Of a stretch of 32,400 nt of DNA, positions 2,814 through 18,238 are shown piece by piece (position 1 is the first letter of the stretch; each line of letters opens with the position of its first letter). The stretch is from the IMG/VR virus record IMGVR_UViG_2778261574_000008, positions 1 through 32,400 of that record. One strand, 5' to 3'. The position numbers and the translations under genes were made by a program. This DNA comes from a virus. Its lineage: Duplodnaviria > Heunggongvirae > Uroviricota > Caudoviricetes. The notes beneath the pieces are model-generated. The model saw only the letters and a list, made by a program, of their open reading frames with translations. It was not told where the DNA came from and did no database searches.

Positions 2814-3116
2814 TTAGCCATGGTTAACCTCCTGCGGAGTAGCCTTTACAAGCACTGGTGTAAATCCATCTTCATTAAGGTTATGAATATAGACTTCCGT
2901 TCTCCTGCGCTCTTCAGCGTTTAATATGGTTTCTGGATCATAAACCCATACTTTCATTCGACTATTCCATGAAGAAATCGCTTCAGATCTAGTTCGTTTT
3001 TCTGGTCCTTGGGCACCACATTTGCATGACACATAGCGCATTTTCCCTCTGATACTGAATGAGTATCCGATGTTAAGCACAGTGGAACCACAGAATGGGC
3101 AGCGATAGAGATTCAT
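2814..3116 (-). CDS. Lar-family restriction alleviation protein
   Basis: 100 aa with an N-terminal CPFCG zinc motif and CKCG second motif, typical of the Lar family; stop overlaps the upstream gene. Confidence 0.6.
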   Translation of the reverse strand: MNLYRCPFCGSTVLNIGYSFSIRGKMRYVSCKCGAQGPEKRTRSEAISSWNSRMKVWVYDPETILNAEERRRTEVYIHNLNEDGFTPVLVKATPQEVNHG

Positions 3117-7191: not shown

Positions 7192-7491
7192 TCAAATAAG
7201 TGGTTTGCTGCCTAATTTCATTTTCTGGCGACCAACACAAGTCACACCCATTTCACTACGTGGCTTGCTGTAGTAAATACGGTTCTGTTTACTCTCGACT
7301 TCTTCTGCCTTCTTGCAGCGAAGGCTTCCGAGTGATGCTGCTTTGTCTGCTCTGACGCAACCAGAGAGCTTTAGCGCAATTTTTCGCGTCAGTCGCTGCT
7401 CTTGCATTGCCTGTTCACGTTGAGCCTGTCTGCGTGCTCTGCGGCGATTTCTGGCGTTATCGTCAGCCAGATATGTAATGACTACTGTCAT
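7192..7491 (-). CDS. N: N-like transcription antitermination protein (phage 21 / P22 gp24 type)
   Basis: About 100 aa from MTVVITY (GGAGG Shine-Dalgarno 6 nt upstream); N-terminal arginine-rich motif NARNRRRARRQAQREQ; C-terminal two-thirds match my recollection of phage 21 N. The ORF-track N-terminal extension is rejected. Confidence 0.65.
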   Translation of the reverse strand: MTVVITYLADDNARNRRRARRQAQREQAMQEQRLTRKIALKLSGCVRADKAASLGSLRCKKAEEVESKQNRIYYSKPRSEMGVTCVGRQKMKLGSKPLI

Positions 7492-7801
7492 GTTGACCTC
7501 CGATGAAACAACTTTGGAATTGATAGTGATTGCAAAGTGGTTTCTGGCCCCTCGAACTGAGGGGCAGAAAGAGCATCTCGCCACCTAATAGGTCAATGCT
7601 CGGATCGAGAGATTTAATTAACCTCGGTTTTGAAGTTATGCATTCACATAAATCCTCCTGTTGCATGTGCAGCATTGGCTGTGTTTGGCGGCTGCATTTC
7701 GCCTATGGAATTGACTTTGGCGGTGACGCGCCGGGTGCTTATCTTCCGGTTGCCGTCGTGCAGCTGCACTTCACGTCACCCCAAAGCCAACTACTCTTTG
7801 G

Positions 7802-8660: not shown

Positions 8661-8740
8661 AGTTAAGACATCTTAAATAAACTTGACTTAAGATTCCTTT
8701 AGTGGATAATTTAAGTGTTCTTTAATTTCGGAGCGAGTCT
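8661..8740 (+). promoter_or_regulatory. OR / pR (and pRM) region: three P22-type operators and the rightward promoter
   Basis: Three 18-bp A-T-AAG-N4-CTT-A-T type sites (8663-8678, 8685-8702, 8709-8726); pR candidate TTGACT (8683-8688)-17 bp-ATAATT (8706-8711). Confidence 0.6.
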
Positions 8741-9360: not shown

Positions 9361-9507
9361 ATGACAAAACAACTCAGTCCTTACCAGGACAAAATTCACA
9401 AACACATACTACGTGATCGCTTCCTGTCCAGCTTCAAGCAGCCTGGTCGATTCCGGGCTGAGTTGGAAAAAGTGAAGCTGATGCAGAAGGAGAAAGGTCA
9501 TGAGTAA
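9361..9507 (+). CDS. Hypothetical small protein (48 aa) between c1 and the replication genes
   Basis: Stop overlaps the ATG of the O-like gene; basic composition. Below the ORF-track cutoff. Confidence 0.35.
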
Positions 9508-10360
9508 TCTTGCAACCGTAACACATTTAAGGCCTTCACAACGGCCTGTGGAGCGTCGTGTGGCAGAAGTTGAAGATGGTTATACCCGTCTTGCAAATGC
9601 CCTGTATGAAGAGCTTATCGGCGCAGATTTAACTAAAAATCAGAGCAAGGTTGCCCACGCCATATGCCGTAAAACATACGGCTACGGTAAAAAGATGGAT
9701 CGCATCTCTGATAGTCAGTTAGCTCAAATTACCAGGCTGCCAAGACAGAAGGTAAACAAGGCCAAGAATGAGCTTATCGCGATGAAGGTTATCCTTCGCG
9801 AAGGCCAGCAAATCGGGCCTAACAAGAACATCGAGGAATGGCAAATCGAAGGGTGTCACTACTCTGGTGATAATGTCACTGCATTGGTGACAAAAAGTGT
9901 CACCAAAACGGTGACAGCGCTGTCACCAAAACAGGGACACACAAAAGAAACTATTACAAAAGAAAAAAGAAATAATAAAAACACTATGTCCGAAAGTGTT
10001 CGGACGGAGTGTGAAAAATCACCTGACCGTCACGAAGAAACCGACAAGGCATTCGAGGAAATATTCTGGTGTGCAGGCATGCGGAAAGCCGGGAAGAAAA
10101 ACGCAGCTTCGGCATTCAGAACACAGTTCAGGGAATGGCGTAAAACTACCAAGGGTACGGCAAGCGAGTTTGCCACGATGCTGGCAGAAGACATCGCATG
10201 CAGGAATGGTAAGCAGTTCGGATTCGACAGGTTGTTACCATCGAGCTACCTGAACGGTCAGCGCTGGAACGACGAAAAGCCAGAAACCATTCAACCACAA
10301 TCCAAACCATCATCCGCAATCACCGTATCGAAAACTGGCTACGTGTTTTTCGACAGGTGA
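9500..10360 (+). CDS. Replication initiation protein, lambda O-like
   Basis: 286 aa at the O position; N-terminal region resembles phage replication protein O; iteron-type origin embedded mid-gene. Confidence 0.65.
9851..10007 (+). repeat. Putative origin of replication inside the O-like gene (iterons plus A/T-rich tract plus palindrome)
   Basis: Repeated GTGTCAC / GGTGACA units at 9851-9933, an A-rich tract at 9934-9985, then inverted repeat GTCCGAA-AGTG-TTCGGAC at 9988-10005. Confidence 0.5.
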
Positions 10361-10363
10361 ACC

Positions 10364-10471
10364 ATGAAATCAAAAATCAAATCGCTACTGGTCGCTGGTT
10401 ATAACCACGGCTGGTTAAGTATTTCGTTTGTCGATTTCTGGTTTAAAAATCTCAATCTGAGGGAATCATGA
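10364..10471 (+). CDS. Hypothetical small protein (35 aa), translationally coupled to the primase-helicase
   Basis: Stop TGA overlaps the downstream ATG (ATGA). Very short; weak support. Confidence 0.3.
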   Translation: MKSKIKSLLVAGYNHGWLSISFVDFWFKNLNLRES

Positions 10472-12348
10472 CGCCAAGTGAACTTAGCGACCTGCTTTGG
10501 GCGCAGGTTGACAGGGTGGCTCCGCACCTGTTGCCAAACGGCAAGAAAGAGGGGCATGAGTGGGTTGCCGGTAACGTCAACGGTGACAAGGGAAACAGCC
10601 TTAAGGTCAACCTTAGCGGCAAGAAAAAATGGGCTGATTTCGCTGAGGGAGACGGCGGTGACATGCTTGATTTGTGGATGGCATGTCGTGGAATTAACCT
10701 GCATCAGGCTATGCAGGAAGCGAAAGCATTTCTCGGTATCAAGGATGACGATCACCATTTCGATGCCAGACGTGAGAAGAAATTCTCCAGACCTGATCGC
10801 AAGAAAATCGCCCGCTACGTTACCAGAACAGAATCCCATCTTGAGTACCTGCAATCGCGTGGCATATCGCCAGAAATCGTAAAGCGCTACGAGGTTGTCA
10901 GCGGCAAGGTGTGGAATGGAGAGCGAGAACTGGATGCTCTGGTGATTCCGTACAAACGCGATGGTGAGTTGTTGCAGGTCAAGCGAATCAGCACTGAGCG
11001 CCCGGACGGGAAGAAAGTCATTATGGCAGAAGGTGATTGCGAACCTTGTCTGTTCGGATGGCAGGCTCTGGACGCTGGCGTGAGGGCGGTTGTACTTTGC
11101 GAAGGCGAAATTGATTGTATGAGCTATGCGCAATACGGCATCTCGGCGTTATCCGTGCCGTTTGGTGGAGGGAAAGGCGCTAAGCAACAGTGGATTGAGT
11201 TTGAGTATCACAACCTCGACAGGTTTGAGGAAATATTCATCTCGATGGACGTTGATGATGTTGGTCGTGAAGCCGCAAGGGAAATCGCAAGCCGACTCGG
11301 TGAACATCGTTGCCGTCTTGTTACTCTGCCGTACAAAGACATCAACGAATGCCTGATGAACGGTGTTACCGAGGATGAAATCTGGCAGTACATCGGCACG
11401 GCATCCTACTTCGATCCTGAAGAACTCTACAGTGCGCGAGAGTTTTACCAGGACACTATCAACGCTTTCTACGGCAAGCAGCAGTATCTGTTTAATCCAC
11501 CGTGGGAATCTCTGGCAGATAAATTCCAGTTCCGTGAGGCAGAGTTGACGCTGGTCAATGGTGTGAACGGTCACGGAAAAACGGAGGTTGTCGGGCATAT
11601 GGCACTTGAGGCAATGCGTCAGGGTGTGAAGACGTGCATCGCGTCACTTGAGCTGAAGCCAGGCATTCTTCTTAAGCGACTTACCCGTCAGGCGACGTGC
11701 TGCAAGATGCCGCCAGTGCTGGAAATTGACTCTGCATTTAAATTTTATGACGAAAGACTTTGGGTGTTTGGCCTGACCGGAACGGCGAAAGCCGACAGGC
11801 TGATCGAAATATTCGACTACGCTCGCCGCCGATACGGCATCCAGTTATTCATCATCGACAGCCTGATGAAATGTGGCATAGGCGACGATGACTATAACGG
11901 GCAGAAGGCGTTTGTTGACTCGATTTGCGACTTCAAAAACAAAACAAACTCCCACGTCATTCTCGTTACTCACTCGCGAAAAGGAGACAGCGAAGAAAAA
12001 CCAACCGGGAAAATGGACGTAAAAGGCTCTGGAGCGATAACAGACCTGACAGACAACCTTTTCATCATATGGCGTAACAAGGCTCGCGAGAGAGCGTTAC
12101 AGAGAGTTCAGAGTGGTGAAAAAATGTCAGAGAAGGACGAACAGCTACTGGCATCTCCGGCATCTGTTTTGATGCTTGAAAAACAACGTAACGGCGAAGG
12201 TTGGGAAGGTGGTGTCCCGTTGTTCCTTGACGAGCAATCGCACCAGTTCCTGCAACTTGAATCAGGATCTCCATATAGCTACATCGCCAATATGCCGAAA
12301 TCGGAATATGACGAGGCGTGGCGACAGGAAAACGTGACGGAGTATTAA
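10468..12348 (+). CDS. Bifunctional DNA primase / replicative helicase (Toprim domain plus RecA-like NTPase domain)
   Basis: 626 aa; Toprim motif VVLCEGEIDCMSYAQ; Walker A GVNGHGKTE; Walker B-like LFIIDSL; occupies the P / DnaB-like gene 12 slot after O. Confidence 0.75.
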   Translation: MTPSELSDLLWAQVDRVAPHLLPNGKKEGHEWVAGNVNGDKGNSLKVNLSGKKKWADFAEGDGGDMLDLWMACRGINLHQAMQEAKAFLGIKDDDHHFDARREKKFSRPDRKKIARYVTRTESHLEYLQSRGISPEIVKRYEVVSGKVWNGERELDALVIPYKRDGELLQVKRISTERPDGKKVIMAEGDCEPCLFGWQALDAGVRAVVLCEGEIDCMSYAQYGISALSVPFGGGKGAKQQWIEFEYHNLDRFEEIFISMDVDDVGREAAREIASRLGEHRCRLVTLPYKDINECLMNGVTEDEIWQYIGTASYFDPEELYSAREFYQDTINAFYGKQQYLFNPPWESLADKFQFREAELTLVNGVNGHGKTEVVGHMALEAMRQGVKTCIASLELKPGILLKRLTRQATCCKMPPVLEIDSAFKFYDERLWVFGLTGTAKADRLIEIFDYARRRYGIQLFIIDSLMKCGIGDDDYNGQKAFVDSICDFKNKTNSHVILVTHSRKGDSEEKPTGKMDVKGSGAITDLTDNLFIIWRNKARERALQRVQSGEKMSEKDEQLLASPASVLMLEKQRNGEGWEGGVPLFLDEQSHQFLQLESGSPYSYIANMPKSEYDEAWRQENVTEY

Positions 12349-12425
12349 ATGACCATCTACATCACTGAGCTAATAACATGCCTGCTGGTAATCGCAGGCC
12401 TTTTTATTTGGGGGAGAGGGAAGTC

Positions 12426-12866
12426 ATGAAAAAACTAACCTTTGAAATTCGATCTCCAGCACATCAGCAAAACGCTATTCACGCAGTACAGCAAATTCTT
12501 CCAGACCCAACCAAACCAATCGTAGTAACCATTCAGGAACGCAACCGCAGCTTAGACCAGAATCGAAAGCTTTGGGCTTGCCTTGGTGACGTCTCTCGTC
12601 AGGTTGAATGGCATGGTCGCTGGCTGGATGCAGAAAGCTGGAAGTGTGTGTTTACCGCAGCATTAAAGCAGCAGGATGTTGTTCCTAACCTTGCCGGGAA
12701 TGGCTTTGTGGTAATAGGTCAGTCAACCAGCAGGATGCGTGTAGGCGAATTTGCGGAGCTATTAGAGCTTATACAGGCATTCGGTACAGAGCGTGGCGTT
12801 AAGTGGTCAGACGAAGCGAGACTGGCTCTGGAGTGGAAAGCGAGATGGGGAGATCGGGCTGCATGA
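12426..12866 (+). CDS. ninB: NinB recombination protein
   Basis: 146 aa from MKKLTFEIRSPAHQQNAIHAVQQILPDPTKPIVVTIQERNRSLDQNRKLWA..., matching lambda NinB by recollection. Confidence 0.85.
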   Translation: MKKLTFEIRSPAHQQNAIHAVQQILPDPTKPIVVTIQERNRSLDQNRKLWACLGDVSRQVEWHGRWLDAESWKCVFTAALKQQDVVPNLAGNGFVVIGQSTSRMRVGEFAELLELIQAFGTERGVKWSDEARLALEWKARWGDRAA

Positions 12867-13390
12867 CTATCAAATCAAATACGCCAGCACACGACAAGGA
12901 CTGCTGGCAAACGCCGCTTTGGCTTTTTGATGCGCTGGATATTGAGTTTGGATTCTGGCTGGATTCAGCTGCGAGCGACAAAAATGCTCTGTGTGCTCAC
13001 TGGCTAACTGAGGCCGACGACGCGCTCAATTCTGAGTGGGTAAGCCACGGTGCAATCTGGAATAACCCACCGTACAGCAATATCAGGCCGTGGGTGGAAA
13101 AAGCCGCTGAGCAGTGCATACAACAGCGACAGACGGTAGTTATGCTTGTGCCAGAGGATATGTCAGTCGGATGGTTCAGCAAGGCTCTGGAGAGTGTCGA
13201 CGAAGTTCGCATTATCACTGATGGACGGATTAATTTTATCGAACCATCGACAGGGCTGGAGAAGAAGGGAAACAGCAAAGGCTCCATGCTGCTGATTTGG
13301 CGACCGTTCATCAGTCCTCGACGGATGTTTACTACCGTATCCAAAGCGGCATTGATGGCGATCGGGCAGGGCGTCAGGAGGGCGGCATGA
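12863..13390 (+). CDS. Phage Dam-like DNA N6-adenine methyltransferase (orphan)
   Basis: 175 aa from MTIKSN (ATGA overlap with ninB); contains the N6-adenine methyltransferase catalytic motif NPPY; replaces ninC/ninD of lambda. Confidence 0.7.
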
Positions 13391-13569
13391 GACGACAGCG
13401 ACGAAGTATCACCGACATAATCTGCGAAAACTGCAAATACCTTCCAACGAAACGCTCCAGAAATAAACGCAAGCCAATCCCAAAAGAATCTGATGTAAAA
13501 ACCTTCAACTACACGGCTCACCTGTGGGATATCCGGTGGCTAAGACATCGTGCGAGGAATACAAGGTGA
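13387..13569 (+). CDS. ninE: NinE
   Basis: 60 aa [23 protein letters not shown]..., matching lambda NinE by recollection. Confidence 0.8.
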
Positions 13570-13736
13570 TTGACCCAAATCGAAGTTACGAACAAGAAAG
13601 CGTCGAGCGGGCTTTAACGTGCGCTAATTGCGGTCAGAAGCTGCATGTGCTGGAAGTTCACGTATGTGAGCACTGCTGCGCAGAACTGATGAGCGATCCG
13701 AATAGCTCAATGTACGAGGAAGAAGACGATGGCTAA
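13566..13736 (+). CDS. ninF: NinF (zinc-finger-like small protein), probable GTG start
   Basis: [38 protein letters not shown]... matches lambda NinF; GTG at 13566 overlaps the ninE stop. An alternative ATG at 13524 would add 14 aa. Confidence 0.7.
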
Positions 13737-14340
13737 ACCAGCGCGAAGACGATGTAAAAACGGTGAATGTCGGGAATGGTTTCACCCTGCATTCGCTAAT
13801 CAGTGGTGGTGCTCTCCAGAGTGTGGAACAAAGATAGCACTCGAACGACGAAGTAAAGAACGCGAAAAAGCGGAAAAAGCAGCAGAGAAGAAACTACGAC
13901 GAGAGGAGCAGAAACAGAAAGATAAACTGAAGATTCGAAAACTCGCCTTAAAGCCCCGCAGTTACTGGATTAAACAAGCCCAACAAGCCGTAAACGCCTT
14001 CATCAGAGAAAGAGACCGCGACTTACCATGTATCTCGTGCGGAACGCTCACGTCTGCTCAGTGGGATGCCGGACATTACCGGACAACTGCTGCGGCACCT
14101 CAACTCCGATTTGATGAACGCAATATTCACAAGCAATGCGTGGTGTGCAACCAGCACAAAAGCGGAAATCTCGTTCCGTATCGCGTCGAACTGATTAACC
14201 GCATCGGGCAGGAAGCAGTAGACGAAATCGAATCAAACCATAGCCGCCATCGCTGGACTATCGAAGAGTGCAAGGCGATCAAGGCAGAGTACCAACAGAA
14301 ACTCAAAGACCTGCGAAATAGCAGAAGTGAGGCCGCATGA
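13729..14340 (+). CDS. ninG: NinG (Rap) recombination-promoting endonuclease
   Basis: 203 aa with Cys clusters, position and sequence as in lambda NinG. Confidence 0.85.
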
Positions 14341-14543
14341 CGTTCTCAGTAAAAACCATTCCAGACATGCTCGTTGAAGCATACGGAAACCAGACAGAAG
14401 TAGCACGCAGACTGAAATGTAGTCGCGGCACGGTAAGAAAATACGTTGATGATAAAGACGGGAAAATGCACGCCATCGTCAACGACGTTCTCATGGTTCA
14501 TCGCGGATGGAGTGAAAGAGATGCGCTATTACGAAAGAATTGA
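14337..14543 (+). CDS. ninH: NinH
   Basis: 68 aa [37 protein letters not shown]..., HTH-like, as in lambda NinH. Confidence 0.85.
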
Positions 14544-17571: not shown

Positions 17572-17719
17572 CATCTGAATTTCACAGCGCATCTCACGCG
17601 CATATTACATCACCCGAGCCTTTCAGAAAGTTGAGCCTGAGAACTGCCGTATATGGTGGCGACCATCTCGGGACGGCTTTTCTGTGAGACAGGCTCACTT
17701 TCTAAAAGGTAAAGACGCT

Positions 17720-18238
17720 ATGAATCATCAATTGGCTAATCTCGATTTCCGGGACATGGTGGTTGTTTCTGGTGATCGCGTGATCACAACCTCCCGCAAG
17801 GTAGCAGCTTACTTCGACAAGCAGCATCACCACATCATTCAGAAAATCAAAAAGCTAGACTGTTCGGATGAATTTCTAACCAGCAACTTTTCGCGGGTTA
17901 CCTATGAACACAAGGGTAATCAGTATGTTGAATATGAAATTTCCAAAGACGGTGCGATGTACATCATCATGTCGTTTACCGGCAAAAAAGCTGCCGCCAT
18001 CAAAGAGGCGTTTATCAAAGCATTTAATTGGATGCGTGACAGGCTGATGGAGATGGCTCACTCATACCAAAGAGAGCACAACGAGTTAATGCTGGAGTTC
18101 ATGAAGGAAAAGGATGTTGCCAGTATGTCAGGACGCTTGCTGAACCGCTGGGGCAGGATCAAAAAACCTCAACTCATAGCAAGAATCGAAAGGCTTGAGC
18201 AGCAGGCGCAAATATCGATCCCCGGACTGCCAAAGTGA
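17720..18238 (+). CDS. rha: Rha-family phage regulatory protein (moron between lysis and packaging genes)
   Basis: 172 aa from MNHQLANLDFRDMVVVSGDRVITTSRKVAAYFDKQHHHIIQKIKKL, the conserved Rha N-terminal domain pattern; P22 carries rha at the same position. Confidence 0.7.
   Translation: MNHQLANLDFRDMVVVSGDRVITTSRKVAAYFDKQHHHIIQKIKKLDCSDEFLTSNFSRVTYEHKGNQYVEYEISKDGAMYIIMSFTGKKAAAIKEAFIKAFNWMRDRLMEMAHSYQREHNELMLEFMKEKDVASMSGRLLNRWGRIKKPQLIARIERLEQQAQISIPGLPK

Follow-up and report, generated by a model that had tools for sequence, protein, structure and literature searches.

A probable orphan GATC adenine methyltransferase of family PF05869 stands in place of ninC and ninD in a mosaic prophage

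The gene between ninB and ninE in the prophage described here encodes a phage N6-adenine DNA methyltransferase of the family PF05869/TIGR01712. We consider it likely that the protein is a functional orphan enzyme that depends on SAM, and that it is the same as M.EcoVT2Dam, a reported GATC methylase. The window, that is, the whole stretch of DNA that was analysed, is 32,400 nucleotides long. The features that bear on the gene are collected in Table 1.

Table 1. Features of the window related to the methyltransferase gene.
Feature	Position	Strand	Remarks
Phage N6-adenine DNA methyltransferase CDS, 175 aa	12863..13390	+	PF05869 / TIGR01712; identical to VT2-Sakai orf32
W15-Q-T-P18, N-terminal 'xTP' motif, read as motif X-like (gamma-class)	12905..12916	+	putative assignment
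L33-D-S-A-A-S38, 'LDxAA', read as motif I / AdoMet-binding loop	12959..12976	+	putative assignment
N68-P-P-Y71, catalytic motif IV	13064..13075	+	read from sequence
PR-like sigma-70 promoter, TTGACT-16-GATAAT, beside CI-like repressor gene	8683..8710	+	candidate from consensus match only
Intrinsic-terminator-like hairpin and T-run, at the lambda tR2 position	12380..12409	+	putative function
ninB/orf, recombination mediator	12426..12866	+	TGA overlaps methyltransferase ATG (ATGA 12863-12866)
ninE	13387..13569	+	ATG overlaps methyltransferase TGA (ATGA 13387-13390)
Mosaic cassette lacking similarity to lambda	12867..13393	+	replaces lambda 41085-42096 (ninC+ninD)

Family assignment and catalytic motifs

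The reading frame is intact. It starts with the ATG at 12863, ends with the TGA at 13388-13390 and encodes 175 amino acids. A longer version from a GTG at 12803 (195 amino acids) was rejected, since homologues begin with MTIKSNTP and the stop codon of ninB overlaps the ATG at 12863. The protein matches Pfam PF05869, "DNA N-6-adenine-methyltransferase (Dam)", with 218.4 bits (cutoff 28.1; E = 6.4e-65; profile positions 1-167 of 169). The equivalog model TIGR01712 of NCBIfam, "phage N-6-adenine-methyltransferase", is likewise matched, with 265.9 bits (cutoff 97.05; E = 9.7e-80; model positions 1-165 of 165). Both matches are far beyond chance. PHROG 111, "DNA methyltransferase", is also matched, and at E≤0.01 the protein shows no Pfam family besides PF05869. 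An earlier note on this DNA had proposed an N6-adenine methyltransferase with an NPPY motif in the nin region. The two family matches and the NPPY at residues 68-71 bear this out.

The same note called the enzyme Dam-like. The name is right for the function and wrong for the family. The classical Dam family (E. coli Dam, T4 Dam and DpnM; PF02086, alpha-class) is recognised by a family match and by the order motif I (FxGxG), recognition domain and motif IV (DPPY). The window protein has no PF02086 match, and it falls outside the family of E. coli Dam. It has no Pfam match either to PF01555, the beta-class family of M.EcoGII type, in which DPPY is N-terminal and FxGxG C-terminal. The MT-A70 methyltransferases of prophages (M.EcoGV / M.EcoPA8orf6770P) are marked by DPPW and a partner subunit, PNB-2; the 175-residue protein has NPPY and matches PF05869 only.

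The conserved segments of the protein follow the order W-x-T-P (15-18), L-D-x-A-A (33-37), D-A-L-x-x-x-W (53-59), N-P-P-Y (68-71), V-M-L-x-P (93-97) and G-R-x-x-F (121-125). From the sequence, we read them as putative motifs X, I, III, IV and following, in a gamma-type order. Among 75 distant relatives, T17 is conserved in 99% and P18 in 95%, and both are invariant in the family alignment. D34 is conserved in 97% of these relatives, A37 in 92%, and the residues of NPPY in 93-99%. All positions with at least 80% conservation in this set, those of xTP, LDxAA, NPPY and GRxxF included, are kept in the window protein. The inactivating changes in catalytic motifs, which the earlier note had named as a possible objection, are thus absent from these residues.

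Beyond the catalytic core there is only a short C-terminal helix. The structure model is of moderate confidence (pLDDT 74, and 52-66 over residues 31-70). When the PDB was searched by sequence, neither the single protein nor a profile of 20 sequences gave a significant match, and no solved structure for the family was found. The target adenine would be flipped into the NPPY pocket, as in other amino-methyltransferases. Since the enzyme lacks a separate target-recognition domain, GATC would have to be recognised by loops of the catalytic core, possibly with the enzyme as a dimer.

Identity with VT2-Sakai orf32

The window protein is identical at 175 of 175 residues to orf32 of the Shiga-toxin phage VT2-Sakai ("similar to DNA methylase", BAA84315.1). 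In that phage, orf32 sits between nin146 (ninB) and nin60 (ninE). In 2001, Radlinska and Bujnicki reportedly cloned M.EcoVT2Dam from VT2 phage and described its GATC methylation. We scanned VT2-Sakai in six frames (60,942 bp; ORFs of at least 80 amino acids) for the pattern [DNS]PP[YFWH], and orf32 was the only ORF that carried it. Other VT2-Sakai ORFs that had been suspected as the methyltransferase proved to be DUF551, Ea22, AntA or BOF proteins.

In PMC6602927, M.EcoVT2Dam is "the orphan MTase of E. coli prophage VT2-Sa", "known to target 5'-GATC-3'", with a citation of Radlinska & Bujnicki 2001. VT-2 is also among the phages listed with Dam-like enzymes (PMC7556043). Because orf32 is the only ORF of VT2-Sakai with an amino-methyltransferase motif, elimination and these citations together strongly suggest that M.EcoVT2Dam is orf32. 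The gene is one already known, and GATC would be the target motif reported for a protein that is identical to the one studied here. The value of the result is mainly a correct annotation; the identical protein was reported as cloned and assigned to GATC more than 20 years ago.

Place in the nin operon

The upstream neighbour is NinB (PF05772, 2e-54). Downstream come NinE (PF05322, 2e-43), NinF and NinG, and further on NinH, a NinI-like phosphatase and a Q-like antiterminator. In lambda the order is NinB-NinC-NinD-NinE-NinF-NinG-NinH-NinI-Q. By blastn, window positions 12349-12866, which take in the tR2 region and ninB as far as the stop codon, correspond to lambda 40567-41084 with 97.3% identity. 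Positions 13394-14400, from ninE onwards, correspond to lambda 42097-43103 with 97.9% identity. The 527 bases between these flanks have no lambda counterpart in the same comparison. The methyltransferase cassette is a clean gene-for-gene mosaic swap. The replacement of ninC/ninD between ninB and ninE, which had been proposed earlier, is confirmed by flanks that are 97-98% identical to lambda.

The public clusters P0002, P0005, P0011, P0013 and P0121 contain longer "fusion" versions of the protein, in which NinE, CII, NinB or other domains are attached to it. P0002 has 233 amino acids and combines PF05869 with PF05322; P0121 has 370. These fusions may be frameshifts or gene-calling read-throughs at the ATGA junctions.

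Distribution of the gene

Near-identical DNA was found in 426 phage records, with 95-99% identity in most of them. They include phages 434, Sf6, SfI, Sf101, HK140 and mEp043 and many Stx-converting phages. In the phage records, the gene is usually annotated already as a DNA (adenine) methyltransferase beside NinB and NinE. It is carried by 1566 of the 5426 complete E. coli genomes (about 29%), in up to 5 copies per genome, where the annotation is "phage N-6-adenine-methyltransferase". More widely, tblastn found relatives in 1850 phage records, and an exhaustive HMMER search retrieved 8784 cluster representatives at E≤1e-3. As an accessory cassette, the gene is common among lambdoid phages.

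Specificity and substrate

Some relatives of the protein have been characterised. The T1 gene ST20 (T1 Dam, 237 amino acids) belongs to PF05869 and has 33% identity to the window protein (2e-26). Its product, M.EcoT1Dam, has been called "GATC-modifying" (PMC4996451). M.Btr190III, a prophage enzyme 35% identical to M.EcoT1Dam, methylated GATC when cloned, with "significant off-target activity", and it seemed inactive in its native lysogen (PMC4996451). The HP1 gene orf13 has been cloned as a Dam gene. It is also in PF05869, with 38% identity (1e-32). Finally, the DNA of the T1-like phage TLS, like T1 DNA, has been reported to be adenine-methylated at GATC sites.

Full methylation of GATC would protect DNA against MboI/DpnII-type enzymes and against nicking by MutH, and it would sensitise DNA to DpnI-type enzymes. 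The window enzyme would complete the GATC methylation of fast-replicating phage DNA that host Dam leaves undermethylated. The virion DNA of lambda and P22 is undermethylated by host Dam, possibly as a result of replication outrunning methylation (PMC8022706). In the next host, progeny DNA could be shielded in this way from restriction enzymes that cut GATC and are sensitive to methylation. Recombinant DNA could be shielded from MutH nicking at unmethylated GATC.

The specificities of such enzymes come from over-expression, which can mislead or give off-target results; a caution on Dam-like enzymes is quoted in PMC10810198. In vivo, the window enzyme, lacking a recognition domain, might methylate adenine in many contexts, with relaxed specificity or almost none, and so give broad anti-restriction protection like Hia5 or M.EcoGII. 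A core-only protein of 175 residues would be compatible with this, as would the significant off-target methylation by cloned M.Btr190III, a relative of T1 Dam. Non-specific orphan methyltransferases are, moreover, common in prophages. However, the known non-specific enzymes are in other families (Hia5 in the alpha-class; M.EcoGII and PhiOS31_p25 in the beta-class family PF01555). The specificity reports found for PF05869 members (VT2, T1 and M.Btr190III) all give GATC as the main target. Relaxed specificity seems unlikely to us on this balance.

A real function other than GATC methylation, taken generally, is rather improbable. It could consist of relaxed adenine methylation, or of action on single-stranded DNA, recombination intermediates or RNA, perhaps with a partner from the nin region such as NinB. 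If true, it would parallel the "Dam homolog" of Stx phages that is a partner-dependent 16S rRNA methyltransferase.

The case of a physiological substrate other than double-stranded DNA (RNA or single-stranded recombination intermediates, possibly with a partner protein) takes that enzyme as its model, a reminder that GATC activity on over-expression may differ from the physiological one. M.EcoPA8orf6770P/M.EcoGV, the other "Dam homolog" of Stx phages, methylates 16S rRNA together with its partner PNB-2. However, M.EcoPA8orf6770P belongs to a different family (MT-A70, with DPPW) and is a different Stx-phage gene, gp5. The score of PCIF1 is only marginally above those of DNA methyltransferases, and the sequence identity is 14%. 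Besides, T1-type phages with a member of the family have been reported to contain fully GATC-methylated virion DNA, and nothing in the analysis indicates a specific partner. We give such a substrate very little credence, and GATC in double-stranded DNA is kept as the preferred target.

Depletion of GATC sites

In the prophage part of the window (1300-32400), GATC occurs 65 times, whereas base composition predicts 121 sites and a Markov estimate 162. Among 4-bp palindromes it ranks second in depletion, after CTAG. In contrast, T1, which has a member of the family, is not depleted like the prophage; it has 235 GATC sites against 187 and 300 expected. The persistence of the depletion would mean that the enzyme has not relieved the selection against GATC, or that it is a recent mosaic arrival. 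Alternatively, the cassette could be too mobile among mosaic genomes to shape their composition. The benefit of the cassette to a GATC-depleted phage bears on the question of why so many of the complete E. coli genomes (about 29%) carry the gene.

Expression and role in lysogens

Directly upstream of the methyltransferase gene, no convincing promoter was found. Transcripts that reach the gene presumably start at the PR-like promoter. The tR2-like hairpin lies upstream of ninB, within the block of 97% identity to lambda, and consists of GCCTGC-N8-GCAGGC followed by CTTTTTATTT. The minus strand carries a gene for an N-like antiterminator (7192-7584), and transcription past the tR2-like terminator would require antitermination by N. 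The gene would be transcribed from PR as part of a delayed-early nin operon, with N-mediated read-through of this terminator. Its translation might be coupled to that of ninB via the ATGA overlap.

Given the PR operon and the tR2-like terminator upstream, lytic growth, rather than lysogeny, is the probable phase of expression of the gene. The enzyme would act in lytic growth or on induction, and not in the repressed prophage. Orphan methyltransferases of prophages have been reported to be silent or very weakly transcribed in lysogens (PMC4996451 among the sources). In a dam+ host, about 98-99% of the host GATC sites are methylated already.

These observations bear on the proposal of the earlier note that the enzyme could alter host gene expression in lysogens, as an epigenetic regulator. 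There is a general precedent; an Stx phage encodes M.EcoGIII, for which effects on the expression of many genes are reported, as cited in PMC6602927. Nevertheless, the gene belongs to the PR operon, downstream of the tR2-like terminator, and has no convincing promoter of its own. The other prophage methyltransferases are reported as silent or poorly transcribed in lysogens. Furthermore, a GATC methylase adds nothing where host Dam has methylated nearly all sites. We regard a regulatory role in the lysogen as most improbable, and the preferred reading remains a GATC methylase of the lytic phase. With the gene likely off and GATC already methylated by host Dam, the methylome of a lysogen in a dam+ host would probably be uninformative. 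The absence of a lysogen-specific methylation motif is compatible with a fully active enzyme.

Orphan status

No restriction endonuclease was found when the larger ORFs of the window were scanned with Pfam and PADLOC. These ORFs encode the LacY-family permease, Ea22, Erf, an SSB-like protein, the N-like protein, the CI-like repressor, CII, O, the Toprim/DnaB-like primase-helicase, lysis genes, Rha and terminase. The best PADLOC models for the 175-residue protein are named "orphan methyltransferase" (3.6e-19 and 3.5e-17). The earlier statement that the gene has no restriction partner agrees with both results. That the methyltransferase is half of a Type II restriction-modification system with an unrecognised endonuclease, as weak secondary PADLOC matches (4e-7 and 1e-5) to models of Type II methyltransferases might suggest, is extremely improbable: both neighbours, NinB and NinE, are tightly coupled nin genes, no endonuclease family appears among the larger ORFs, the arrangement ninB-methyltransferase-ninE recurs in hundreds of phages, and the best PADLOC match is to an orphan enzyme.

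Another ORF of the prophage is related to restriction. It is an ORF of 100 amino acids in the early left operon (2814-3116, minus strand), and its Lar restriction-alleviation domain scores above the cutoff (PF14354, 1.4e-8). Besides the methyltransferase, the prophage thus carries another, independent function connected with evasion of restriction.

Other parts of the prophage

The first 1248 positions of the window hold a host gene for a LacY-family sugar permease (PF01306, 1.7e-193). A small excisionase-like ORF follows at 1778-1978 on the minus strand, about 530 bp from the permease; in the matching genomes RefSeq names it TorI. Between these two there is neither an integrase ORF nor a tRNA gene, so the integrase appears to be missing at the permease end of the prophage. 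The junction of permease and excisionase-like ORF is also present in at least 15 complete E. coli genomes.

The replication module consists of a lambda O-like initiator (9500-10360) and a primase-helicase of 626 amino acids with Toprim and DnaB-like parts (10468-12348). The primase-helicase stands in place of lambda P, and lambda-identical sequence resumes at 12349. An NPPW at residue 350 of its frame (633 amino acids from stop to stop) was set aside; in a Toprim/DnaB-like protein the motif is a chance occurrence. Positions 17684-18238 (plus strand), which lie after the lysis genes and before the gene for the small terminase subunit, encode a Rha-family regulatory protein that has an ORF11CD3 domain.

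Comparison with known systems

Several other enzymes were considered as possible counterparts of the window gene and rejected. Hia5/Hin1523, which are non-specific, are alpha-class relatives of Dam. M.EcoGII and PhiOS31_p25 of a Serratia prophage ("many Escherichia phages") are both in PF01555 and have 342-349 amino acids; PhiOS31_p25 is further set apart by its position after Q. M.EcoMIV of ST131 is in PF02086. M.EcoGV is highly similar to M.EcoPA8orf6770P, the MT-A70 rRNA methyltransferase.

The closest system is M.EcoVT2Dam (VT2-Sakai orf32), with an identical protein, the same position between ninB and ninE and the same Pfam family. The genomes around the gene differ from each other. The prophage of the window is a P22/Sf6/CUS-3-like mosaic that has a primase-helicase in its replication module and lacks stx genes.

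T1 Dam and HP1 Dam share with the window enzyme the family PF05869, NPPY and the order of motifs, and they are orphan phage enzymes as well. However, T1 Dam is larger (237 amino acids), being extended at the N terminus and having an insertion. The genomic context is also different, T1 being a virulent phage and HP1 a P2-like one.

In lambda, NinC and NinD fill the slot that the methyltransferase has here, between ninB and ninE, and the gene junctions are likewise of the ATGA type. Their proteins are unrelated to the methyltransferase (NinC is annotated as PAPS-reductase-like), and the DNA of the cassettes is dissimilar.

E. coli Dam and T4 Dam (PF02086, alpha-class) resemble the window enzyme in the reported product, N6-methyladenine at GATC, and in having no restriction partner. 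Finally, Hia5/Hin1523 (alpha-class) and M.EcoGI/II and PhiOS31_p25 (PF01555, beta-class) are orphan m6A methyltransferases borne by phages. They are silent in lysogens and have a presumed anti-restriction role, as proposed for the window enzyme. They differ from it in their families, in being non-specific and in their larger size (about 340-350 amino acids in the beta-class).
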